Source: a bacterium
Lineage (GTDB): Bacteria > UBA8248
Direction of reading: 5' to 3'
NCBI GenBank assembly: GCA_965203325.1
Contig: OZ241875.1
Span: forward strand, 800,001 to 864,000
DNA: 64,000 nucleotides
This document shows positions 3,614 to 47,484 of the stretch, one piece after another (the stretch's first letter is position 1; every line of letters begins with the position of its first letter). The position numbers and the translations under genes were made by a program. The notes beneath the pieces are model-generated. The model was not told where the DNA came from, did not search any database, and saw only the letters and a program-made list of their open reading frames with translations.

Positions 3614-6465
3614 GAAAGCACCTTCGCGGCGATGCGGGCGCAGCGCGCCGAGAGGTCGGGGAAACGCGGGTCAGAACCCACGTCTTCCGAGATTTTCCAC
3701 GACATGGCGCACTTCGCCCCCCGCGCCTCGTTCACCTCGACGGCCAGACCCTCCACCTCCTCGCTGCGGTAAACATCGCCCGAGGGCGCCTCGCCTGAGT
3801 CTGCGAGCGCGGCGCCCGAGACGATGAACACGTCTTCCATCTCGGGTTCCAGAACCGCCAGCCTCTCGCGCATACTCTCCTCGGTGAACAGCCTCACGCT
3901 GAAATTGAGAGAACTGCCCTTGCCCTTTTCCTGATTCTGGCGGACGAGTTCGAGCGCCTTGAGCACCTCGGCCCGCGCGCGCATGAGCGGTTCCCATTTC
4001 TCTTCGAGCGCCTCGTCGCGCCGCGCAGCGTCGGCCTCGGGCAGGGACGCCAGGTGAATGCTCTCGCCGTGTAGTTTCGGCGTGAGTTGATAGGCTTCTT
4101 CCGCCGTGAAGGGCAGGATCGGCGCCATCATCCGGAGCAGCGCATCCAGGATTTCGTGCATGGTGCTGACGCCCGATATTCTGTCCACGTCGTCGGGCAG
4201 GGAGATGTAGAGCCTGTCCTTCAAGACGTCGAGATAGAACGAGGACAAATCGACCGCGCAGAAGTTGTTGAGCGCATGGTAGACGGCGTGAAACTCATAA
4301 TCGGCATAGGCCTGCCGCACGCGCTCGACGAGCCTGTCCAGGCGGCTGATGATGAGCCTGTCGATCTCCATGCGCTCTGCCAGCGGAACGGCGTCCTCGC
4401 CGGTGTCGAAGCTCTCATAGTCTCTCAGGTTGCCCAGCAGGAAGCGGCACGTATTCCTGATCCGGCGGTAGGCCTCCGCCATGCGGTCGAGAATCTGCGG
4501 GGAGATGCGGATGTCTTCCCTGTAGTTCTCCCCGGCGACCCAGAGCCTTAATATCTCGGCGCCGTATTTCTTGATGATCTCTTCGGGCGCGATCGTGTTG
4601 CCGAGCGATTTGCTCATCTTCTTGCCCTTGCCGTCCACCACGTAGCCGTGGGTGAGCACTTCGCGGTAGGGCGCCGCGTCCCTGACGCCGACGGCGGCGA
4701 GCAGGGAACTGTGGAACCAGCCGCGGTGCTGATCGCTGCCTTCGAGATACATGTCCGAAGGCCACGTCAACTCTTCTCTTTTCTCCAGGACGGCCGCCTG
4801 GCTCACGCCCGAGTCGAACCATACGTCGAGAATGTCGGTCTCTTTCCTGAAAGACGTGCCGCCGCATTTGGGGCAGGTGAAACCCGGCGGCAGAAGTTCC
4901 GCGGCCGGTCTCTCGAACCATACGTCCGCGCCGCCTTCTTCCATCAGGTCGGCCACGCGGTGCGCCACCTCGGCGTCCACCACGACGTGCCCGCAATCCT
5001 CGCAATGGAAGGCGACGATAGGCACGCCCCAGGAGCGCTGGCGCGAGATGCACCAGTCCGGCCTGTTCTCGATCATGCCGTAGATGCGCTCCTCGCCCCA
5101 AGGCGGCACCCAGGCGACTTTTCGAATTTCCTCCAGCGAGCGCTTTCTCAAATCGGCGTGCTCCATCGAGATGAACCACTGCGGCGTCGCGCGGAAGATG
5201 GTCGGCCTGTGGCTGCGCCAGTCGTGCGGATAGGGGTGGGTGTAATCCTCCACCGCGAACAAATGGCCCGAATCGCGCAGATGGGCAATGATGTTCGGAT
5301 CCGCATCGAAGACGAACTGGCCTGCGAAATGCGCCACGTCGTCGGTGAACTTCCCGTCATCCGCGATGGGGCTGTAGACTTCGAGGCCGTATTTGAGGCC
5401 GGTCTCGTAGTCCTCGCGCCCGTGGCCGGGAGCGGTGTGCACGACGCCCGTCCCCTGATCGAGGGTGACGTAATCGGCCTTCACGACGAGCGAGTCGCGC
5501 TCTATCCAGGGGTGTCGCGCGTGCAAGCCCTCGATCTCGCCTCCCTGGAAGCCCGCCACCTTCTGGAAGGCGCCGCTCGCACCCTCTTGTTCGGCCAACT
5601 CTTTCAACCGGGGCAGGAAATGCTCATGGAATATCAGCAACTCCTCCCCGTGGCGGAATACGCCGTATTCGAGAGTCTCGCTGAACGCCAGCGCCAGATT
5701 GGCGGGCAGCGTCCAGGGCGTCGTCGTCCAGATGAGAACGCTCACCCGCGAACCTTCCGCGGCCTCGTCCAGACCTTCGATCTTCTCCGCCCAGCCCGGC
5801 AACTGCTCGTCCGAGATGGGGAACTTCACATAGATGCTCGGCGTGGTGACCTCCTCATACTCCACTTCGGCCTCGGCCAGCGCGGTCCTCAGACCCGGCG
5901 CCCAGTGCACGGGTTTGAGACCCAGATACACGCCGCCGCGCTCGATGAAGCGCGCCAGTTCGCGCACGGTGGCGGCCTCGTAGTCGTAGCTCATGGTGAG
6001 GTAGGGCCGCTCCCAGTCGCCGAAGACGCCCAGGCGCTTGAACTCGTCCCGTTGGATGTCGATGTATTTCTCCGCGTATTCGCGGCACATCCTGCGCTTT
6101 TGCACCTCGTCTATCTCGAAGCGCTTGCGGCCGAGTTCCTTGTCCACCTGGTGTTCGATCGGCAGGCCGTGGCAGTCCCATCCCGGCACGTAGACGGCGT
6201 CGAAGCCGGCCATCTGCTTCGATTTCACCACGACGTCCTTCAATATCTTGTTCAGCACCGTGCCCAGGTGGATATGCCCGTTCGCATAGGGGGGGCCGTC
6301 GTGCAGGATGTATTTCTTGCAGCCCTGCGATGCGTCCCTGATCTTCTCGTAAATACCCTGCGCCTCCCAGGACTCGAGCATCTGCGGCTCGCGCCGGGGC
6401 AGGTTCCCCTTCATGGGAAACGAGGTTTTGGGCAGGTTCAAGAGTTCCTTGTAGTTCGTCGTCAT
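3610..6465 (-). CDS. ileS: Isoleucine--tRNA ligase
   Basis: [35 protein letters not shown] motifs. Confidence 0.98.
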
Positions 6466-6481
6466 TCTCCCATCCAGTCCT

Positions 6482-7504
6482 TTATGTCGTTTCGACAGCC
6501 GATACGGGCATCCCGGGGATTCCCGCCGCCTCCCTCACGAGGCGCATCGTCTTTTGCGCCTCCGCCCTGGCCCTGGCGCCGCCTTCGGCCAGAACGTCCT
6601 CCACATAGCCGATATCCCCTTCCAGGCGTTTCCTCTCTTCCCGGTAAGGTGCGAAATACGCATCCATCTTCTCGAAAAGAGCCTGTTTCGCATGGCCGTA
6701 GCCGAAGCCGGGCGTCCGGTATTGCTCCCTGAGCTCCTCCTGTTCCGCCTCATCGGAGAAGAGTTGATACAGGGCGAACACGTTGCAGGCGTCAGGGTCT
6801 TTGGGCTCTTCGAGCGGGGTGGAGTCGGTGACGATCGACATCACCCGCTTCCTGAGTTTTTTCCCCTCCTCGAAAATCTCGATGGTGTTGTCATAGCTCT
6901 TGCTCATCTTCTGGCCGTCCAAGCCCGGCACCTTGGCCCCCGCATCGAGCCGGACGGTGGGCAGGGGGAAGATTTCCCCATACGCGTTGTTGAACGCCAG
7001 GGCCATGTCGCGCGTCATCTCGAGATGCTGCACCTGATCCTCTCCCACGGGCACGACCGTGGAGCGGTAGATGAGGATGTCGGCGGCCATGAGCATCGGG
7101 TAATAATAAAGCCCCATCGAGGGCGTGATGCCTCGCGCCACCTTGTCCTTGAACGACGTGGCGCGATCCAGAAGCCCCTTTCCCGTGACGGCGGAGAGCA
7201 TCCAGGCGAGTTCGTTCACCTCGGGCACGTCGGACTGGCGGAAGAAAACCGCCTTTTCGGGGTCCAGACCCAATGCGAGATAGTCCATCGCCACGGCAAG
7301 CGTCTGCTCCGCCAGCAAGTCCTTGTCCTGCACCGTCGTCATGGCGTGGTAGTTCGCAATAAAATAGAAGGCCTCAGCCTCATCCTGGAGCGCGATGTGC
7401 TGTTTGAGCGCGCCGAAATAATTGCCCAGGTGCAGTTTTCCCGAGGGCTGCACTCCGGAGAGAAACCGCGTCGGCCGGTTTTTCTCGTTTTGGCTATCCG
7501 TCAT
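6482..7504 (-). CDS. trpS: Tryptophan--tRNA ligase
   Basis: [26 protein letters not shown] motifs. Confidence 0.97.
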
Positions 7505-40522: not shown

Positions 40523-42043
40523 CTATTCCTCCGCGCCGTGACCGTTCAGGTCGGCGGGGTCGGTCACCTCGATGCTCCCCGTGAGCCCGAAAAGGCGCTG
40601 CATCTTCTTCCTGAAGGCCGGGGTGAAGAGTTTTTTGGCATAAAACCGGCCCGCCACCCTTTTGTTCACCTGCGCCAGGGTGGGATAGACATGAACCGTA
40701 TCCACCACCTCTTTGACGTGCATCTTTTTGCGGACGGCCAACACGAACTCGTGCAATATCTCTCCCGCCGCAGGCCCGACCAAATCGGCCCCCACGAGCC
40801 TGCCCTTCTCGTCGCACACCACCTTGCAAATGCCCTCCGTCTCTCCATCCAAAACGGCGCGGTCCACGCGGCTCATCGGGAAGCGGAGCACCTGGATGCG
40901 ATTCGCCCCCAAAGCCGCTTCGGCGTCGGCTTCGCTCAAGCCGACGTGCGCCGCCTCGGGCGTGGTGTAGATCGTCCACGGCACGGCGTCATAGTTCGTT
41001 TTCTTCTTGAGAAACGGGAGCGGAATCCCGAAAGGCGCGCTGAAGAGCATGTTCCTGAGCGCAACGCCCGCCTCATATTCCGCCATGTGGGTGAAGAGAT
41101 ACTGCCCCCGGATGTCGCCGGCGGCGAAGATGCGCGGATTCGCGGTCTGGAGATACTCGTCCGTCTCCACGCCGCGCGGCGTGTGCTTCACGCCCGCCTT
41201 TTCGAGGTCCATCCCGCCCACGTTGGGCGAGCGGCCGGTAGCGATGAGGAGCTGATCGCAAGCCCATTCCCTCTTTCCCGACGGCGTATCGGCCTCCAGG
41301 AAAATCTCCTCGCCGCGTTTCTCGACCTTTTGCGTGTTCACGTTGAAGTGTAGCTTGAGGCCGGATTCCGCCAGGGAATCGGCAAGAATCCCGGCCATCT
41401 CCTTATCGAGCCTCGGCAGGAGCTTCGGCGCGCTTTGCAGCACTTCCACCTCGGCGCCGAGTTGCTGAAACGCCTGGGATAGTTCCAGGCCGATAGGTCC
41501 CGCTCCCAGCACCACCAGGCGTCTCGGCAATTCCTCCAAATCGAATACGGTTTCGTTCGTGAGATAGGGCACGCTATCGAGACCGGCGATGGGCGGCACG
41601 AAGGGAGAACTCCCCATGGACAGCAAAAACCGCTTGGCCCGCAGCGTCCTGTCCCCTACCTGAAACGTATCGGGGCCGGTAAAGGCGCCATCGCCGAATA
41701 TCACCTCGATGCCCATGCCCTCGAAGCGCTCGGGCGCATCGTGCTCGCCGATGTGGGCCTGGGCCGCCTTCATCCGCTTCATGACGCGGGGAAAATCGAC
41801 CCGCACGCCGCTTACGTCAATCCCGAACTCGGGCATCGAGCGCGCCTGCGCGGCCAGCCTCGCCGAGCGGATCAGGCCCTTGGAGGGCACGCATCCATAG
41901 TTCAGGCAATCGCCGCCGAGTTTCGCCTTCTCCACGAGTGCCGCCTTGGCGCCCAGTTGCGCAGCGCCCACTGAGGCCACCAAGCCACCGACCCCTCCCC
42001 CGATGGATACCAAATCAAACACCGATTCTTTTTGCATCTTCAT
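40523..42043 (-). CDS. Pyridine nucleotide-disulfide oxidoreductase (Lpd/MerA-like class I)
   Basis: GGDCLNYGCVPSK, GAGPIGLE, ATGRSPN, AAGD, C-terminal HVYPT. Confidence 0.9.
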   Translation of the reverse strand: MKMQKESVFDLVSIGGGVGGLVASVGAAQLGAKAALVEKAKLGGDCLNYGCVPSKGLIRSARLAAQARSMPEFGIDVSGVRVDFPRVMKRMKAAQAHIGEHDAPERFEGMGIEVIFGDGAFTGPDTFQVGDRTLRAKRFLLSMGSSPFVPPIAGLDSVPYLTNETVFDLEELPRRLVVLGAGPIGLELSQAFQQLGAEVEVLQSAPKLLPRLDKEMAGILADSLAESGLKLHFNVNTQKVEKRGEEIFLEADTPSGKREWACDQLLIATGRSPNVGGMDLEKAGVKHTPRGVETDEYLQTANPRIFAAGDIRGQYLFTHMAEYEAGVALRNMLFSAPFGIPLPFLKKKTNYDAVPWTIYTTPEAAHVGLSEADAEAALGANRIQVLRFPMSRVDRAVLDGETEGICKVVCDEKGRLVGADLVGPAAGEILHEFVLAVRKKMHVKEVVDTVHVYPTLAQVNKRVAGRFYAKKLFTPAFRKKMQRLFGLTGSIEVTDPADLNGHGAEE

Positions 42044-42098
42044 ATCCTCTCCAGACGGCGAAATGCGTCTCTTCCGCAACGAACGCGGAGCAGTCCGC

Positions 42099-43625
42099 TC
42101 AAGATGTTTCCTTTTCCAGGGGTTTCAGCCCGAACGAGAAGAACAGGAGCGCCATGAGCAAATAGCCGATAGCTATGCCGGGCGCCGCCCCCCAGCCGAA
42201 GAAGCTGACGACGCCGCCGGGCGTGATTCGCCAGGCGTGGATGACCCCGAACCAGCTCAATACCGCGCCGGCCAGCGCCCATCCTCCCGCCTGTTTCGGC
42301 TCCTTGTCCACAAGTTTGGCCACGATGGCGGTCATGATGATGGACGTGAAAAGAAAACCGCGCTCCAAAGTGACCATCCCGACGAGGTGGAATCCCGCCT
42401 TGGCGAACGCATCCTGCCCCACTTTCCACAAGTTCGTGCCCGCTCCCCTTAAGGAGGATTCCACCATCAGCAGACCCCACGCGGCGATGGCGGGTATCAA
42501 GCCGATGGCCACGGCCGGCCCGTGATTCTTCGGTACGGCCTGGAATGCCTGGGTGAGCATCATCACCCCGATCCATAGCATGAGGGCGAAGAGCGCCTCG
42601 CCCGGAATGATCTTGGAAAGCGCCGCTATCGAGCCGGTGAGGCAAAGGATCGTCATCACGACCCCGTTCATGGCGCTATAGCCGGAGCGCGCCCCGACTG
42701 CCTTCCAGGCAGGGTGTCCGATATATATGGTCGTGGGAAAACAACTGCCCAGACACGCCGCGAGAAGCGATCCTGCGCCGTTCACCGCCAGGGAACTGCC
42801 CGTATCGAAATTGTCTCCGCCCGCAGACGCGCTTTCGAGGCACATCAGGCTGCCGACAAGCGTCATCAGGCCCATGGGGATGGAAACCGCGAGGTAATCC
42901 CAGGCCAGCGGGCCGAAGAGAGCGTCTGACAAAGGACCGAAGGCGAAGGATGGAAGCGCAAGACCCACAGGCGCGGGGATGCCGCCCGGAAATCCTCTGA
43001 TGACGGCGGAGAGCACCACTCCCACAGCCACCGCCACGAGGCCGCCGGGCACACCGAAGGGGAACCGGAATCCGCCGAAATAATGGATCAGGATGATTCC
43101 CAGCGGGATCATGGAGAGGAGCGGATTCTCCCAGATTCTGAACGCGAAATCCATGGCGATGAACGTGAGCGCGATGCCTCCCAGTGCGGAGAGCAGGGCG
43201 GCCCTCGGCGCGACCCGCCTGATCCACCCGCCCGCCAGCGCACCGACGGTCTCGATCACCCCGCTCACGAAACAGGCCGCCATACCCGCCTTCCAGGCAG
43301 CCTCGGCGCTTCCGGTCTTGAGTTTCACCGGCAGCATGACGAAGAAGATAAATGCGAAAAGCGTCACCGTGTTCAGGCCGTAGGGCATGGCGGTCACGTC
43401 GTCGCGGCCCTCGCGCGCGGCCAGTCGCCGCGCCTGCCAGGTGTAGAAAAGATTTCCGCCGAGGAGGCTCAGCGCCGCTGCGGGCAACACGCGCCCGAAG
43501 ATGAGCGAATCGGGAAAACCCAGCAGCCCTTTCAAGAAGCTCACGATGAGAAGAAGGTTGATGAGGTTGTCCATCCACAGGCCGAAGAAGCCGTCCACAT
43601 CGCCCTTCACGAACCATTTGGACAT
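42099..43625 (-). CDS. NCS2-like (xanthine/uracil) permease
   Basis: GDVDGFFGL, TAMPYGLN, PTTIYIGHPAWK; highly hydrophobic. Confidence 0.8.
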   Translation of the reverse strand: MSKWFVKGDVDGFFGLWMDNLINLLLIVSFLKGLLGFPDSLIFGRVLPAAALSLLGGNLFYTWQARRLAAREGRDDVTAMPYGLNTVTLFAFIFFVMLPVKLKTGSAEAAWKAGMAACFVSGVIETVGALAGGWIRRVAPRAALLSALGGIALTFIAMDFAFRIWENPLLSMIPLGIILIHYFGGFRFPFGVPGGLVAVAVGVVLSAVIRGFPGGIPAPVGLALPSFAFGPLSDALFGPLAWDYLAVSIPMGLMTLVGSLMCLESASAGGDNFDTGSSLAVNGAGSLLAACLGSCFPTTIYIGHPAWKAVGARSGYSAMNGVVMTILCLTGSIAALSKIIPGEALFALMLWIGVMMLTQAFQAVPKNHGPAVAIGLIPAIAAWGLLMVESSLRGAGTNLWKVGQDAFAKAGFHLVGMVTLERGFLFTSIIMTAIVAKLVDKEPKQAGGWALAGAVLSWFGVIHAWRITPGGVVSFFGWGAAPGIAIGYLLMALLFFSFGLKPLEKETS

Positions 43626-43801
43626 CGGGGTCTCCCCGTTCAGGGTTAAAAACGTCAATCCAGGCGCGCCGCGCCCTCGGGATAGTAAAACACGCGGGCT
43701 TTTTCGCCAAAGCGCGCGGGGCAGTTTTTCTCATCGAGATCGTTTTGATATGCTCCATCCATATACAAAAATCACTTTCGCGTTCACTCGGGAGAAAAGC
43801 G

Positions 43802-44554
43802 ATGGAAGCTGTCAAGGTCTACACGCGGCACGGGTGATACACCTGCGCCCTTACGAGAGAGTTTCTCTCGTCCAGCGGTTTGGAAGTCGTCAACCGGGAC
43901 TGTACGAACGACGCCGAGGCGCAGGCGGAATTGAAAGCACTCGGCATCAAGTCCCTGCCCGTCGCCGTACGCGGAGAGAACGTGGTGGTGGGCTATGACG
44001 TGGATGCGCTTCGCGAGGCCTTCGGCATCGAAGGGGAAGGCGCAGGCCCCCTCTCGTCCGAAAAGATGCTCCACTACTTCGAGATGGTATTCGACGCCCT
44101 GCGCCGCGTAGTCCGCCAGATTCCGCACGAAACCCTCGACTGGATATCTCCCGGCAGACCCCGCTCGCTTCGCCAGCTCACCTGGCACAGCTTCGAGCGT
44201 CCGGACCTGGTGATGCAGGCCCACGCATCGGGCGAATACACCGAGGAGATGGTGCGCCGGTATGAAACGATGGCGGACGATTACGATACCACCGAGGACA
44301 TTTGCGCCTATGGAGATGAAATTCAGGCCAGACTCACCGAATTCCTCACGGACGGCGGCGAGGCGCTCGCCAAGAAAGTATCGAGCTATATGGGGCCCAT
44401 CACCGTCCATGAACTGATGATCCTCTCCCTGGGACACGCCTTTCAGCATTTGCGGCAAACCTATCACTATTTCGGGATGCTGGAGATGGAGCCGGAAAAC
44501 CCGCTCAGGCCCGAGGATTACGAGGAAGTGCCCGTGCCCAAGGATCTGTTCTAG
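43802..44554 (+). CDS. Probable selenoprotein: glutaredoxin-like (UxxC) domain fused to DinB-like domain
   Basis: GGAGA RBS, ATG 43802, MEAVKVYTRHG-TGA(43835-43837)-YTC in frame with ORF 43880-44554; SLPV cis-Pro motif; WH...HAFQH. Confidence 0.8.
43853..43871 (+). promoter_or_regulatory. Candidate bacterial SECIS hairpin
   Basis: ACGAGAGA-GTT-TCTCTCGT perfect 8-bp stem starting 15 nt after the TGA, G in the apical loop. Confidence 0.65.
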
Positions 44555-44585
44555 ACCATACCTGAACCCACAAGGAGGCTGTCTG

Positions 44586-45863
44586 ATGCCCTCGAAAGAC
44601 ACGTTCCCCTTCCGCGCGAACCGCGACCGCATGAGGCGTGAGTTCAACGCCCAGGCGAAGATCGGCAAATACGGAAAAACGGGCCTGGATCGCGTGGCCT
44701 TCACACCGGTCTACAATGAGGTGCGCGACCTCGCCGAGGGCTGGATGAAGGCGGCGGGCCTCAAGACGCGCGTCGACGCCGTGGGCAACCTCTACGGAAG
44801 AAAAGAGGGCCGCGTGCGCGGGCTTCCCGCCGTGATGGCGGGCTCCCACCTCGATTCCCAAAGCCCGGGCGGACGATTCGACGGCCCCGCCGGCGTTCTC
44901 ACCGCTTTGGAAGCGTTCCGCCGCATCAATGAGACGGGAATCTCCCACGATCACCCCATCGAGATAGTGGCCTTCGTGGGGGAGGAATCCGCGTGCGGGA
45001 TGACGGTGTTCGGGAGCAGCGTCGCCACGGGCGTCGTGGGCGTGAAGGACTTGAAGAACACGGTGCATCCGCCCAGCGGAAAATCGCTCTATGAGGCCAT
45101 CGAGGCGGTGGGCGGGAGTCCTGCGCGCGTCCGCTCGTGCCGTATCAAGGAGGGCTCGCTCAAGGCATTTCTGGAGCTTCATATCGAGCAGGGCCCCGTG
45201 CTCGAATCGGCCGAAGTCCCCATCGGCATCGTGGACAGGGTGGTGGGATACACGAGAGGGGAGGTGCATTTCACGGGCGTCACGGCGCACTCGGGCGGAC
45301 AGCCCATGCCCTACCGCAAGGACGCGGGCATCGCTGCGGCGGACTTCATGGTGCGCATGGAAAACCTCGTGAACCGCGCGCCCGACTCCCAGCGCGTCAC
45401 GATCACTTTTGGGGAGATGGAGGCGCATCCAGGGTGGGTGTCCATCGTGCCCGGAGGCGCGAGGCTATCCTTTGATCTCAGAAGCAGAAGCCAGGCGGTA
45501 ATGGAGCGCATCCTCGGGCGGATGGAAAAGACCCTCTCCGCCATCGAGAAGGAACGCGGCGTAAAGGGCCGTCTGGCCGACGTGAAGAAGCTGGCCGTCT
45601 GCCCCGCTTCGAACAACATTCAAAAGGCGCTCCGGCGCGCATCCAAAGAAACGGGCCACGCTTCGCTTACGCTGTCGAGCGGCGGGGTGCACGACGCCTG
45701 CCGCATGGCGGAGATTTGCCCGATGGGCATGGTGTTCATCCCCTCGGTGGGCGGTCTCTCGCACACGCCCGAGGAGTTCACGCACTTCGACGACATGGTG
45801 AAGGGTGCGGAAATCCTCGCCTCCGCCATCACGCATCTGTCCAACGAGAAGGTGAAGGCGTAA
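44586..45863 (+). CDS. Zn-dependent amidohydrolase (allantoate amidohydrolase / N-carbamoylase, M20)
   Basis: GSHLDS, GRFDG, EES, ELHIEQGP, GGVHDA, SHTPEE motifs. Confidence 0.92.
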   Translation: MPSKDTFPFRANRDRMRREFNAQAKIGKYGKTGLDRVAFTPVYNEVRDLAEGWMKAAGLKTRVDAVGNLYGRKEGRVRGLPAVMAGSHLDSQSPGGRFDGPAGVLTALEAFRRINETGISHDHPIEIVAFVGEESACGMTVFGSSVATGVVGVKDLKNTVHPPSGKSLYEAIEAVGGSPARVRSCRIKEGSLKAFLELHIEQGPVLESAEVPIGIVDRVVGYTRGEVHFTGVTAHSGGQPMPYRKDAGIAAADFMVRMENLVNRAPDSQRVTITFGEMEAHPGWVSIVPGGARLSFDLRSRSQAVMERILGRMEKTLSAIEKERGVKGRLADVKKLAVCPASNNIQKALRRASKETGHASLTLSSGGVHDACRMAEICPMGMVFIPSVGGLSHTPEEFTHFDDMVKGAEILASAITHLSNEKVKA

Positions 45864-46150
45864 GGCGACAAGTCAACATTACACGTACTTTCCCAGGCAT
45901 TTCACCGTTCAGTGATGCGCTGGTCCTCCCAGGTTGATCCGTCGCACCTGCTCGAAAGAGATGCGACCCTTCACCGTACTTTCCCTCTGAAATCCTTTAT
46001 TTATTATGGAGTTATTGTGAAGCGGGTTGTTTTGTGGTAAATTTCGCCGCCGAATCAATGAAATGGAAGTGTGAATTTGTTGCCGCACCTCGTGCGGCGT
46101 GGCGTCTCGAAACGACAAACTCTACAGTTGAAATCGAGAGGGAGAAAAAA

Positions 46151-47410
46151 ATGGGCAGGATAATCAGGCACGTTATTTTCGGGTTTGCGCTGCTCCTCGC
46201 AGTGAGCATCGCCTTCACGCCTGCGGCGCAGGCGGCCAAGGAAGTGAAGATAGGCTTCAGCATGGCGCTGACCGGACCGCTCGGCCCCGCGGGCAAAGCG
46301 GCGCTTCTGGCCATGCAGATCTGGCGCGACGACGTGAACGCCAAGGGCGGACTGCTCGGCCGCAAGGTCAAGCTGGTCTATTACGATGATCAGACCAAGC
46401 CGGCCAACGTACCGGGCATCTACGCCAAGCTGCTCGACGTGGACAAGGTGGACTTCATCGTATCGGGCTACGGGACGAACCTCATCGTTCCCGCGCTGCC
46501 CATCGCGATGGAGCGCGGCATGGTGTTCATGGGCCTGTTCGGCCTCGACGCGAACGCGAAGTTCAAATACAACAACTACTTCCAGATCATGCCGGCCGGC
46601 CCCGACCCCATCGTGGACTGGTCGCGCGGCTTCTTCGAACTCGCCGCGAAGCAAAAGCCCCGTCCCAAGACGATAGCGCTGCTCTCGGCGGATGCGGAAT
46701 TCGCGCGCAACGCCGTGGCCGGCGCCCGCCGGAACGCGAAGAAATTCGGCTTCAAGATCGTCTACGACAAGCGCTACCCCTTCCCCGGCACGACCGACTT
46801 CACGCCGATTCTTCGCGCGGTCAAGGCCGCGAACCCGGATCTCTTCTACGTTGGCTCCTATCCGGGCGGTTCGGTGGGCATCGTGAAGGCCGCACATGAG
46901 ATCAAACTGGAACCCAAGCTCTTCGGCGGCGGCATGGTGGGACTTCAGTACACCGCCATCCAGATGAACCTCGGCAAACTGCTGAACGGCATCACGGACT
47001 ACTGGTTCTGGGCGCCGGAGAAGACCCTGAAGTTCCCCGGCATCGAGGCATTCCTGGCGAAATACCAGAAAGAAGCGCCCAAGCAGAAACTCGACCCGCT
47101 GGGCTACTACCTGCCGCCGTTCGCCTACGCCTACGTGCAGTTGCTCGGAAATGCGATCGAGGCCACCAAGAGCTTCGATCAGGCGAAGATCGGCGCCTAC
47201 ATCCGCAACAACACCCATTCGACCGTGGTCGGAGACGTGAAGTTCGGAAAGAACGGCGAATGGGCGACTTCCCGGACGTTCCAGGTTCAACTGCAGAACA
47301 TCCAGAGCAACAAGATGAGCGAGTTCAGCAAAGCAGGAAAGATGGTGGTGGTGTATCCCGAGGAGTTCAAGTCCGGAAACTTCATCTACCCATACGCGAA
47401 GGGCAAGTAA
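46151..47410 (+). CDS. LIV-type ABC substrate-binding protein
   Basis: Signal peptide; KIGFSMALTG, NAKGGLLGR, YDDQ motifs. Confidence 0.9.
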   Translation: MGRIIRHVIFGFALLLAVSIAFTPAAQAAKEVKIGFSMALTGPLGPAGKAALLAMQIWRDDVNAKGGLLGRKVKLVYYDDQTKPANVPGIYAKLLDVDKVDFIVSGYGTNLIVPALPIAMERGMVFMGLFGLDANAKFKYNNYFQIMPAGPDPIVDWSRGFFELAAKQKPRPKTIALLSADAEFARNAVAGARRNAKKFGFKIVYDKRYPFPGTTDFTPILRAVKAANPDLFYVGSYPGGSVGIVKAAHEIKLEPKLFGGGMVGLQYTAIQMNLGKLLNGITDYWFWAPEKTLKFPGIEAFLAKYQKEAPKQKLDPLGYYLPPFAYAYVQLLGNAIEATKSFDQAKIGAYIRNNTHSTVVGDVKFGKNGEWATSRTFQVQLQNIQSNKMSEFSKAGKMVVVYPEEFKSGNFIYPYAKGK

Positions 47411-47430
47411 CGAACCGGACATAATACCGC

Positions 47431-47455
47431 GACCGGGGGGCGACGCCCCCCGGTC
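47431..47455 (+). other. GC-rich hairpin between binding protein and permease genes
   Basis: GACCGGGGGGCGACGCCCCCCGGTC; no T tail. Confidence 0.55.
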
Positions 47456-47484
47456 CGCGTCCGGCTCGCGGGAGGAGAGCATCC

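Follow-up and report, generated by a model that had tools for sequence, protein, structure and literature searches.

In the 64-kb window, by which we mean the whole stretch of DNA analysed (64,000 nt), positions 43802–44554 on the forward strand very likely constitute a single gene for a 250-residue selenoprotein in which the UGA at codon 12 is decoded as selenocysteine (Sec), as judged from the sequence. The frame comprises 250 codons between ATG 43802 and the TAG at 44552–44554 and contains one in-frame TGA at 43835–43837 (Table 1). Codons 1–11 read MEAVKVYTRHG and are followed by the TGA and then by YTC ALTREFL, after which the frame stays open into a 224-aa ORF that ordinary gene calling starts at TTG 43880. 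A GGAG-type motif at the identical distance from the start codon was found in all 35 homologous loci. The first-pass annotation had described this arrangement as a hidden selenoprotein with a glutaredoxin domain and a DinB-like domain. Its ribosome-binding site, start codon, upstream peptide, TGA and open continuation were all recovered where it had placed them.

Table 1. Features of the selenoprotein gene and its neighbourhood (positions refer to the window)
Feature	Position	Strand	Basis
Class-I flavoprotein (pyridine nucleotide) disulfide reductase	40523..42079	-	Pyr_redox_2 + Pyr_redox_dim
519-aa membrane protein, possible permease, divergent	42099..43658	-	no curated family
Ribosome-binding site GGGAGA	43790..43795	+	sequence; 6 nt 5' of ATG 43802
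Predicted full selenoprotein CDS, 250 codons + TAG, one TGA	43802..44554	+	translation; homologues; AlphaFold model
Glutaredoxin/NrdH-like thioredoxin-fold domain, residues 1-75	43802..44026	+	Pfam PF00462, PDB profile, Foldseek
TGA, predicted Sec codon (U12), position 1 of U-Y-T-C motif	43835..43837	+	homologue Cys alignment; 35/35 invariance
TGC, Cys15, resolving Cys of U-x-x-C motif	43844..43846	+	invariant in 24-row orthologue alignment A1
bSECIS-type hairpin, 8-bp stem, loop GUU 43861-43863	43853..43871	+	folding, pairing, synonymous constraint, bSECIS model
DinB_2 four-helix bundle, residues 93-219; H129 44186-88, H212 44435-37, H216 44447-49	44078..44458	+	Pfam PF12867, Foldseek
Hydantoinase/carbamoylase-family M20 amidase	44586..45863	+	TIGR01879 349.7 bits vs 204; Pfam Peptidase_M20

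The N-terminal part of the protein is a glutaredoxin (Grx) domain. Pfam Glutaredoxin (PF00462) matches residues 4–56 with 34.3 bits against a gathering threshold of 22.9, and this match spans the TGA. Among PDB profiles 7c10_A was matched over residues 3–80 (E 5.1e-15; 39–40% identity over 72 residues), and Foldseek aligned the N-terminal domain with 7c10/7c12 (TMt 0.89–0.90) and also with the NrdH structures 4hs1, 1h75 and 4fiw. The AlphaFold model of the full-length protein has a pLDDT of 90.1 and a pTM of 0.84; it predicts a strand at residues 4–8 and a helix at residues 13–24, with U12 and C15 at their junction. P53 lies at the cis-Pro position and is invariant in an alignment of the wider family (A3, 23 rows). 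The PF00462 score, the thioredoxin fold and the CxxC-type motif where helix 1 begins place the domain among the glutaredoxins. The TGA had been proposed to occupy the first Cys position of the glutaredoxin CxxC motif, and in the alignments it does fall on the leading Cys of the 7c10 motif C-P-H-C and on that of CxxC in distant homologues. Full-length representatives of the latter read ...WQPGC(S/T)SCLRTKEFL, and 36 of 40 distant representatives examined carry CxxC. Cys is the standard partner of Sec in homologous proteins.

The C-terminal part is a DinB-like domain, for which both Pfam and the fold search speak. DinB_2 (PF12867) matches residues 93–219 with 31.0 bits (gathering threshold 24.8) over profile positions 2–127 of 128. 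By Foldseek the domain resembles 6iz2 (TMt 0.83), 2p1a (0.74–0.78), YfiT 1rxq (0.62–0.70) and mycothiol S-transferase 8f5v (0.69). When sequence profiles were compared with solved structures, matches to the DinB part were marginal only (3dka, E 0.36). Membership in the DinB/YfiT (STL) group thus follows from the profile match and the four-helix-bundle fold. The His pattern WH...HAFQH noted in the first pass is present as W128-H129 and H212-A-F-Q-H216, and its three His residues are invariant in both the 24-row orthologue alignment (A1) and A3. Three His are the usual metal ligands of the DinB/YfiT superfamily. H129, H212 and H216, with their H...HxxxH spacing, are candidate metal ligands. According to PMC10950700, most DinB/STL members have three conserved His, with two His and one Asp in MST, and little is known of the substrates they act on in the cell or of the thiols they use. 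The same source describes the enzymes as metal-dependent thiol transferases, the resulting conjugates being cleaved by an amidase and exported. As a description of the fold, the first-pass label "thiol-transferase-like" is correct, and the corresponding activity is a prediction of the model.

We found full-length homologues with exactly one TGA at 35 of 35 loci in 34 of the 61 genomes searched, with identities ranging from 100% down to 48%. All of them retain the motif M-(E/G)-x-V-K-(V/I)-Y-T-R-(H/Y)-G-TGA-(Y/F)-(T/S)-C, and the hairpin described below is kept as well. The 11 codons preceding the TGA vary synonymously (GCT/GCC, AAA/AAG, CGG/CGC/AGG and four Gly codons), so that the peptide is kept while its codons change, and protein-level conservation extends, again in 35 of 35, over the 26 codons that separate the TGA from TTG 43880. 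Two more Cys residues, C34 and C168, are conserved solely within this lineage (alignment A1). The 4.39-Mb genome contains the complete machinery for Sec incorporation: selA (571 bits), selB (393 bits), selD (333 bits) and the tRNA-Sec gene selC (75.9 bits) all scored above curated cut-offs. selD itself carries an in-frame TGA at its GG-U-GSK site. The lineage is already known for very large selenoproteomes, according to BSepDB.

Downstream of the TGA, within the coding sequence, lies the perfect 8-bp hairpin that had been noticed earlier about 23 nt past the codon. It reads ACGAGAGA-GUU-UCUCUCGU (43853–43871), with the loop G at 43861 and a spacing of 23 nt between UGA and loop. Folded alone it has a free energy of -9.6 kcal/mol, and none of 200 dinucleotide shuffles was as stable; in its 61-nt context the value is -18.3 kcal/mol (z -2.15). 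Bacterial SECIS (bSECIS) elements have been described by a loop of 3–9 nt, a stem of 4–16 bp, a G in the first two loop positions, a location 16–37 nt past the UGA and an MFE of at most -7.5 kcal/mol (PMC13188914). The hairpin agrees with this description in every respect, having a 3-nt loop beginning with GU in addition to the stem, spacing and energy given above. Across 28 sequences the stem positions pair in 94.2% of cells, which 0 of 500 shuffles reached, and a G-C pair is replaced by A-U in four sequences. Covariation is modest: both sides change in 2 of 8 pairs, probably reflecting few independent events. Synonymous entropy is 0.43 in the hairpin codons 18–24 compared with 0.97 in the rest of the gene, and the lowest six of 143 seven-codon synonymous windows all overlap codons 12–25. 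Since the stem region overlaps the conserved peptide (R/K)EFLS, its conservation lies partly at the protein level. Rfam at gathering thresholds gave no match in the whole 64-kb window, the hairpin thus standing outside any curated RNA family. In this genome, the RNA that follows the UGA of selD folds differently and contains no look-alike hairpin. As selD is the single comparator, we drew no organism-specific SECIS consensus.

The Grx-DinB fusion extends well beyond this lineage. At least 580 genome loci were found, mostly in Proteobacteria, and the fusion is maintained across two deep clades. In the best 80 of these loci, which are those closest to P0105 and not a random sample, in a scan seeded with the tight alignment A4, the target codon is TGC or TGT in 61 and TGA in 19. 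The hidden TGA form thus occurs in at least 19 proteobacterial species, and in two Sec-type loci (L125 and L127) selB lies directly 5' of the gene. We compared TGA and Cys loci by stem length in register, because overall MFE does not separate them: for the 54 nt past the codon the mean is -11.9 kcal/mol in Sec loci and -14.0 kcal/mol in the more G+C-rich Cys loci. An uninterrupted stem of 7 bp or more, with G first in the loop (second in three loci), was present in 19 of 19 TGA loci, but in only 1 of 61 Cys loci. The identical hairpin type to that of the window was seen in 10 of the 19 proteobacterial Sec loci and in none of the 61 Cys loci. Furthermore, the residue after KEFL is Ser in all 19 TGA loci, compared with 1 of 61 Cys loci; here the choice of an amino acid is visibly set by the RNA structure. 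With loops at +26 versus +39/40, one protein family contains two hairpin solutions and constitutes a compact natural experiment. That the Grx-DinB family as a whole began with Sec and gave rise to Cys forms on two or more occasions is compatible with the tree.

In order to approach the function of the protein we considered the neighboring genes. The amidase gene lies on the same strand, 31 nt 3' of the selenoprotein gene, and the two are probably co-transcribed. Of 15 orthologous loci, 11, representing 5 of 7 genera, have it adjoining on the same strand; two genera belonging to the same family lack it at the downstream position. The divergent 519-aa membrane protein is adjacent in 9 of 15 orthologous loci. 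It had no Pfam or NCBIfam match, and lowering the Pfam threshold to E 10 gave only a chance match to Pox_A14; a sub-threshold lead points to Xan_ur_permease clusters (0.89). The flavoprotein scores 494.7 bits on NF004991 (cut-off 620) and 361 on MerA (cut-off 454), and 6 of the 15 orthologous loci contain it, contig ends cutting several of the loci short. Next to the best 80 proteobacterial homologues, whose neighborhoods vary, amidase, permease and reductase were found in 0 of 80 cases, and Pfam analysis of 68 flanking ORFs from 34 proteobacterial loci yielded no common partner. Some neighbors of the proteobacterial homologues are redox genes (MsrA, DsbA-like, OYE). Concerning low-molecular-weight thiols, the genome, which is 95.5% complete, yielded no gshB, gshA (TIGR01434), bshC or mshC above cut-off; the GshA search used this one model, while several unrelated forms of the enzyme occur. 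The lack of a glutathione synthetase above cut-off fits a reduction of the Grx domain by a reductase and not by glutathione.

From these observations we propose the following model. SelB and Sec-tRNA(Sec) very likely decode the UGA at codon 12 under the direction of the hairpin inside the coding sequence. The product combines an N-terminal Grx/NrdH-like fold, with the active site Sec12-Tyr-Thr-Cys15, and a C-terminal DinB/YfiT bundle with His 129, 212 and 216. The Sec12 selenolate may act as nucleophile or reductant toward a substrate held at the DinB metal site, in a thiol-transferase or reductase reaction in which the tethered redox domain would replace or assist a free low-molecular-weight thiol. 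Cys15 would resolve the intermediate, giving a Sec12-Cys15 selenosulfide, and the adjoining flavoprotein disulfide reductase is a candidate for re-reducing it with NAD(P)H. The carbamoylase-type amidase encoded downstream and the divergent permease would, in this lineage, belong to the pathway in which the enzyme works. We put forward the functional part of this model, from the role of Sec12 onward, tentatively. It builds on the amidase adjoining in most orthologous loci, on the recurrence of permease and reductase, on four thiol-synthesis models scoring below cut-off and on the thiol-transferase chemistry with amidase-cleaved conjugates outlined in PMC10950700; it is weakened by the absence of all three partners beside the 80 proteobacterial homologues. 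Going further, the fusion might work as a DinB-type enzyme on its own, independent of any low-molecular-weight thiol: Sec12 would attack the metal-bound substrate, the flavoprotein would regenerate the enzyme, and a ureide-, hydantoin- or thio/seleno-imidazole-type substrate would be imported by the NCS2-like permease, the amidase finishing the pathway. We consider this extended version unlikely. If true, however, it would represent a new selenium-dependent route for making or breaking C-S or C-Se bonds without glutathione, bacillithiol or mycothiol.

A different role for a genuine selenoprotein has to be weighed against this model. The Grx domain could be an ordinary electron-transfer module instead of the catalytic nucleophile, which keeps the DinB metal site or a partner (e.g. 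the amidase or a peroxidase-like acceptor) reduced, or which handles a soft metal or metalloid together with the MerA-like flavoprotein. Such a role would fit the best family scores of the N-terminal domain, which are those of NrdH and YruB-type redoxins, the redox genes near proteobacterial homologues and the lineage-specific conservation of C34 and C168. The MerA score of the adjoining flavoprotein points in the same direction, but it stays below the cut-off, and no metal-transport genes were seen adjoining the gene. In addition, the persistence of the fusion over at least 580 loci in two deep clades argues that both domains serve one reaction. We regard a pure electron-transfer role as possible, if somewhat doubtful, and slightly prefer a Sec12 that takes part directly in the reaction at the DinB site.

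As to the decoding itself, the TGA could be a true stop that ends an 11-residue leader peptide, with a separate DinB-only protein starting downstream, for example at TTG 43880. This is how ordinary gene calling treats the locus, giving the 224-aa ORF, and stops of this kind are frequent in the window, TGA terminating 16 of 39 long ORFs. The public databases read the gene in the same way: among 37 close database homologues, 35 lack N-terminal sequence and are labelled "DinB family" or hypothetical, while 2 contain a false Trp, in line with the earlier expectation that ordinary annotation would truncate the protein. However, the annotated starts are scattered among orthologues, with lengths from 154 to 229 aa, and a conserved internal start is absent. 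A stop at this position would separate strand 1 of the glutaredoxin fold from the helix of the active site, interrupting the Pfam match to residues 4–56. It would also leave the protein-level conservation of the upstream peptide and of the 26 codons up to TTG 43880 (35/35) to be accounted for, as well as the existence of intact CxxC forms and the restriction of the hairpin to TGA forms (a stem of at least 7 bp in 19/19 versus 1/61 Cys loci). We consider a true stop very improbable. The "DinB family protein" of the public databases is most likely a shortened version of the 250-residue Grx-DinB selenoprotein, and the gene is mis-annotated almost everywhere it is found.

Equally improbable is a TGA that stands for Trp, Cys or Gly, whether by near-cognate suppression or by a variant code, or that results from an assembly or sequencing error for TGC or TGT. 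Two public gene calls (P0014 and P0022) do show W at the site; a gene caller using table 4 gives precisely this residue for TGA, and the DNA of the matching group (L055–L057) has TGA. Both the use of TGA as a stop in 16 of 39 long ORFs and the full Sec machinery of the genome speak against another decoding, as does the fact that the aligned residue in homologues is Cys. An error is contradicted by the presence of TGA at the site in 35 genome loci and 19 proteobacterial loci, and by two DNA data sets that hold the stretch. In particular, a metagenome contig from an independent data set spans the whole stretch, and no TGC or TGT at the site appears among the 40 differences listed for it, with 85 more. 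Sponge metatranscriptome runs contributed two further contigs, which belong to a relative with about 90% identity; they begin at 43773 and 43790 and cover ATG, TGA and hairpin. RNA-library contigs may contain DNA, and the TGA in them was judged from the differences listed (40 listed, 85 more). All four runs were compared as contigs. Separately, we note that X1 may be the source sample. A pseudogene was rejected together with stop and re-initiation, sequencing error and a variant genetic code.

Sec insertion at codon 12 hence remains our preferred reading. The interpretation of the first-pass annotation, a Sec-dependent redox domain fused to a thiol-transferase-like fold, is supported. It had named a missing selABCD, homologues with neither Cys nor TGA at the site, a lack of conservation in the 11 upstream codons and reads with TGC or TGT as grounds for abandoning it, and none of these checks that were run refuted it: selA, selB, selD and tRNA-Sec are present, TGA is found in 35/35 close homologues and Cys (61) or TGA (19) in the best 80 distant loci, the peptide is kept, and the differences listed for the independent metagenome contig include no TGC or TGT at the site. 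With this family the bacterial selenoproteome gains a two-domain protein that exists in a Sec and a Cys form. The selenoprotein catalogues searched do not list a Grx-DinB selenoprotein family: the terms "DinB" and "YfiT" are absent from the text of deep-Sep, BSepDB and a 2026 review and from the deep-Sep supplements. A literature search on glutaredoxin-DinB fusions returned no such fusion among the titles retrieved, and one on DinB-type selenoproteins gave nothing relevant. The fused redox partner, the neighborhood with amidase, permease and reductase, and the natural Sec/Cys pairs offer handles for DinB/STL biochemistry.

Several known systems share single traits with the protein. Glutathione S-transferases have a similar layout, in which an N-terminal thioredoxin fold with the catalytic residue is followed by an all-helical domain. 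Foldseek matches to them over about 250 columns reach a TM of 0.27–0.38 with an rmsd of 10–16 Å, only the first domain truly matching, and their helical domain stands in place of the DinB bundle found here, so that the likeness is at most an analogy of design and not homology. UXX-star and HUGP/GUXX-star proteins (NF041212, NF045501 and related models) are Grx-like selenoprotein modules, some of them fused; matches to them are weak (37.9 and 22 bits, cut-offs 66 and 325), and their Sec lies near the C-terminus, whereas here it is residue 12 and followed by 238 residues. NrdH and YruB redoxins gave the best NCBIfam scores of the N-terminal domain, far under their curated cut-offs (NrdH TIGR02194 38.2 versus 85.75 bits, YruB TIGR02196 46.4 versus 88.55 bits); the protein differs from them by its Sec and its fusion, and no ribonucleotide reductase context was seen. 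Filing it under NrdH, YruB or Uxx-star was rejected, all scores being below the curated cut-offs. To the DinB/YfiT enzymes, comprising the BstA/YfiT bacillithiol transferases and mycothiol S-transferase, it is linked by the DinB_2 score, the four-helix bundle and the three conserved His, but known members have neither a fused redox domain nor Sec, and sequence similarity to the solved ones is marginal. The selenoprotein glutaredoxins are represented by clostridial Grx1 (7c10/7c12), which we take to be natively a selenoprotein. They share the thioredoxin fold, a Sec or Cys as first residue of the motif at helix 1 and the KEFLS stretch that follows, and the 2026 review counts "Glutaredoxin (Grx) PF00462 UxxC" among the experimentally supported selenoprotein families. 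Their motif is U/C-P-x-C in contrast to the U-Y-T-C found here, and while the known ones are stand-alone proteins of about 80–120 residues, the protein described here carries an additional DinB domain of 170 residues.

The gene was found as the first-pass annotation had described it: ribosome-binding site, ATG, eleven-codon peptide, TGA, Y-T-C and open frame all agree with the sequence. Standard ORF calling recovers just a 224-aa ORF starting at TTG 43880 in the same frame. On the read-through protein Pfam Glutaredoxin matches residues 4–56 (34.3 bits, cut-off 22.9), spanning both sides of the TGA, and DinB_2 residues 93–219 (31.0 bits, cut-off 24.8). Two antisense ORFs, 43784–44704 (−, 306 aa) and 46055–47482 (−, 475 aa), lie over real + strand genes and are probably spurious, a product of the 61% G+C content.

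Features of the fusion gene and its neighbours (positions in the window)
Feature	Position	Strand	Remarks
GGGAGA	43790–43795	+	
ATG start	43802	+	
MEAVKVYTRHG			11 codons, ATG included, directly before the TGA
In-frame TGA	43835–43837	+	followed by TAC ACC TGC (Y-T-C)
Hairpin ACGAGAGA-GUU-UCUCUCGU	43853–43871	+	UGA to loop G 23 nt
TAG stop	44552–44554	+	frame open until here, 250 codons
Amidase, hydantoinase/carbamoylase-family M20	44586–45863	+	31 nt downstream, same strand; TIGR01879 349.7 bits, cut-off 204
519-aa membrane protein	42099–43658	−	upstream, divergent; multi-pass, conserved
Class-I flavoprotein disulfide reductase	40523–42079	−	upstream, divergent; NF004991 494.7 vs 620 bits, MerA 361 vs 454 bits, both below cut-off

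An AlphaFold2 model computed from a 24-row orthologue alignment (pLDDT 90.1, pTM 0.84) has a thioredoxin fold at residues 1–75, with U12 and C15 where helix 13–24 begins; the remainder is helical. Foldseek matched the N-terminal domain to glutaredoxins and NrdH (7c10/7c12, TMt 0.89–0.90, 39–40% identity; 3zit, 4hs1, 1h75) and the C-terminal domain to DinB/YfiT proteins (6iz2, TMt 0.83; 2p1a; 1rxq, YfiT; 8f5v, mycothiol S-transferase; 2nsf). The TGA had been assigned to the first Cys position of a glutaredoxin motif, and in a profile search of PDB sequences it indeed pairs with the first Cys of C-P-H-C in the top match, 7c10_A (E 5.1e-15). Invariant across a 23-row wide-family alignment are P53, G48, G198 and H129, H212 and H216. 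The three His are candidate metal ligands, since DinB/STL enzymes usually bind their metal through three His (PMC10950700). C34 (43901–43903) is present in at least 90% and C168 (44303–44305) in all rows of the orthologue alignment. Conservation of both Cys is confined to the window's lineage, the proteobacterial forms having neither, and they may give that lineage additional redox or metal chemistry.

When 61 genomes (that of the window plus 60 relatives) were searched in six frames, 35 full-length matches came up in 34 of them, including all 23 of the genus and members of six more genera of the family; two genera (3 genomes) gave no match. Identity falls from 100% to 52% (48% for one paralogue). 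Each match holds exactly one TGA, preceded in all 35 by M-(E/G)-x-V-K-(V/I)-Y-T-R-(H/Y)-G and followed by (Y/F)-(T/S)-C. The codons of the upstream peptide vary synonymously (GCT/GCC/GCG, AAA/AAG, TAT/TAC, CGG/CGC/AGG, four Gly codons), a pattern that marks the stretch as translated. The paralogue (L058/L071, G023:C20:672–1436), a second fusion gene in one relative, has kept TGA and hairpin and stands without amidase, permease or reductase neighbours.

That ordinary annotation would truncate the gene is borne out by public records: 35 of 37 close homologues in protein databases are cut at the N-terminus (154–229 aa, many different starts) and, where named, are called 'DinB family protein' or hypothetical. 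The remaining two have 250 aa and W at the TGA site, the output expected of a table-4 gene caller. The metagenome gene calls P0014, P0022 and P0063 render the TGA as W in this style, recording a selenoprotein as a Trp protein. Such full-length entries with W may point to other hidden selenoproteins.

Folded in isolation the hairpin reaches −9.6 kcal/mol, equalled by none of 200 shuffles, and the SECIS proposed at this position fits each of the four constraints that PMC13188914 quotes for the bSECIS model. Synonymous codon entropy was calculated for 30 of 34 orthologues aligned in one register of 250 codons (four 249-codon rows were excluded); it averages 0.43 at hairpin codons 18–24 vs 0.97 at 153 other conserved, degenerate codons, and among 143 seven-codon windows the six with the smallest values all overlap codons 12–25. 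Across 28 sequences 94.2% of the stem cells are paired, a value reached by none of 500 shuffles, with slid controls at 33–73%. One stem pair reads A-U instead of G-C in 4 sequences, and a second reads G-U instead of A-U in 5; since both sides change in just two of the eight pairs, covariation by itself is modest. We infer that the hairpin is under selection at the RNA level. Relatives also carry Grx-like genes that stand alone and contain one or two TGAs in frame; examples are L059 (G038:C5, ~123049–123267), which reads ...STPT-TGA-PHC, and the weak six-frame matches at G010:C1:3482564–3482812 and G016:C6:50333–50563. Because L059 carries the same GAAAGA-GUU-UCUUUC hairpin, Grx-type selenoproteins seem to use this (K/R)EFLS hairpin repeatedly as their SECIS.

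The single-contig genome (4.39 Mb) holds the decoding genes whose presence had been left to be checked: selA (571 bits), selB (393 bits) and tRNA-Sec (75.9 bits) each score above the curated cut-off, and selD scores 333 bits. The latter (G000:C1:1726679–1727641, − strand, L011) has an in-frame TGA of its own (...VKAGG-TGA-GSKLGPE), and the RNA 3' of it folds differently from the fusion-gene hairpin. Otherwise TGA is a normal stop in the window, terminating 16 of the 39 ORFs that reach 250 aa or more without overlapping one another; some of these ORFs are probably antisense artefacts of the G+C content.

The decisive comparison is that of Sec and Cys forms across the wider family. An exhaustive HMMER search over 1.84 billion representatives gave 528 relatives at E ≤1e-3, including 146 at E ≤1e-10. 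Among 40 representatives examined, 36 had been chosen for aligning from query residues 2–7 (22–30% identical), and all of these have C-x-x-C at the site (...WQPGC(S/T)SCLRTKEFL, rarely CSNC or CGNC); of the other four, shorter fragments, one has W there. In many other relatives the sequence begins right at M(T)KEFLS, with the first Met past the motif. A tighter subfamily alignment, scanned against species-representative genomes, gave at least 580 loci, of which the best 80 (Burkholderiales, Alphaproteobacteria and others) were examined. All 80 have an intact upstream peptide (e.g. ...VFWQPG-TGA-TSCLR), and the site codon is Cys in 61 (TGC 35, TGT 26) and TGA in 19; together with TGA in all 35 close matches, this answers whether homologues carry Cys or TGA at this site. 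At 12–45 nt past the codon, an uninterrupted stem of 7 bp or more is present in 19/19 TGA loci vs 1/61 Cys loci. The Ser directly after KEFL, whose UCG codon closes the stem in TGA loci, is likewise found in 19/19 and 1/61. In ten TGA loci the hairpin is essentially that of the window and keeps its register (GCGAAAGA-GUU-UCUUUCGU, loop at +26); nine have another one further downstream (CUCGGUCC-GUG-GGAUCGAG, loop at +39/40).

This second type (L115, L124–L127, L133, L137, L142, L155; 7–8 bp stem, loop GUG or CGUGA) represents a second SECIS solution within one protein family; its loop, 39–40 nt past the U of UGA, is at the outer edge compared with the published 16–37 nt. Two TGA loci from alphaproteobacterial MAGs have selB immediately upstream (L125:2764–4803, L127:2912–4861) and look like a small selenium gene cluster. 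Downstream of the Sec-form gene, L127 also encodes a class-V aminotransferase of the cysteine desulfurase/selenocysteine lyase type (6017–7168). A quick maximum-likelihood tree (104 rows, LG+G4, SH-aLRT support only, Sec/Cys column masked as X), whose root is arbitrary, requires just two Sec/Cys changes; the window's family forms a long-branched clade of Sec forms only, and proteobacterial Sec forms fall in a deep, poorly resolved part of their group.

Near-identical DNA occurs in metagenome runs from several studies, labelled as sponge metagenomes. The best-matching run is identical and may be the source sample; an independent run contains the entire stretch of 1001 bases on a single contig that shows 23 differences. 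Two RNA-library contigs from one study, derived from a relative ~90% identical, cover 43773–44595 (822 nt) and 43790–44218 (444 nt) and by these coordinates include ATG, TGA and hairpin; RNA libraries can contain DNA. TGA and hairpin are free of differences among the 40 listed (85 further ones exist).

The interpretation as a hidden UxxC selenoprotein joining glutaredoxin and DinB-like domains holds, the finding is real, and the gene is very probably a genuine selenoprotein gene. All NCBIfam models score below their cut-offs, generic Grx-like families scoring highest, and full-text literature on selenoproteins and selenocysteine yielded nothing relevant on a DinB-type selenoprotein. DinB, YfiT, PF12867 and PF05163 are unmentioned in the 2026 review on prokaryotic selenoproteomes (PMC13188914), also in the table of families there, as are DinB and YfiT in the deep-Sep and BSepDB papers and the deep-Sep supplements. 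On these grounds we regard the fusion as a selenoprotein of the UxxC thioredoxin-fold type that belongs to a new two-domain family; automatic pipelines may already have recorded it as plain 'Grx'.

Among 15 orthologous loci from 7 genera, the amidase is adjacent on the same strand in 11 (5 genera), absent in three with enough DNA, and one locus is uninformative. The membrane protein is adjacent and divergent in nine and the reductase present in six, several loci ending at contig edges. None of the three accompanies any of the 80 best proteobacterial homologues, whose neighbourhoods vary (LysR and GntR regulators, AidB-like, DsbA-like, MsrA, OYE and GGT genes). On the amidase, the models for ErtE and allantoate amidohydrolase give high scores that stay below their cut-offs. 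The membrane protein has no curated family in Pfam or NCBIfam, the sole lead being sub-threshold matches to xanthine/uracil permease clusters. Glutathione synthetase, E. coli-type GshA, BshC and MshC all lack a hit above cut-off in the 95.5%-complete genome. From the neighbouring genes and these four thiol-synthesis models we tentatively propose that the Sec/Cys redox domain would serve the metal site of a DinB-type thiol-transferase-like enzyme and be recycled by the neighbouring flavoprotein, and that in the window's lineage the enzyme would be coupled to the amidase and a transporter. Such a scheme would resemble what PMC10950700 describes for the bacillithiol and mycothiol systems, with a transferase, a conjugate amidase and efflux.
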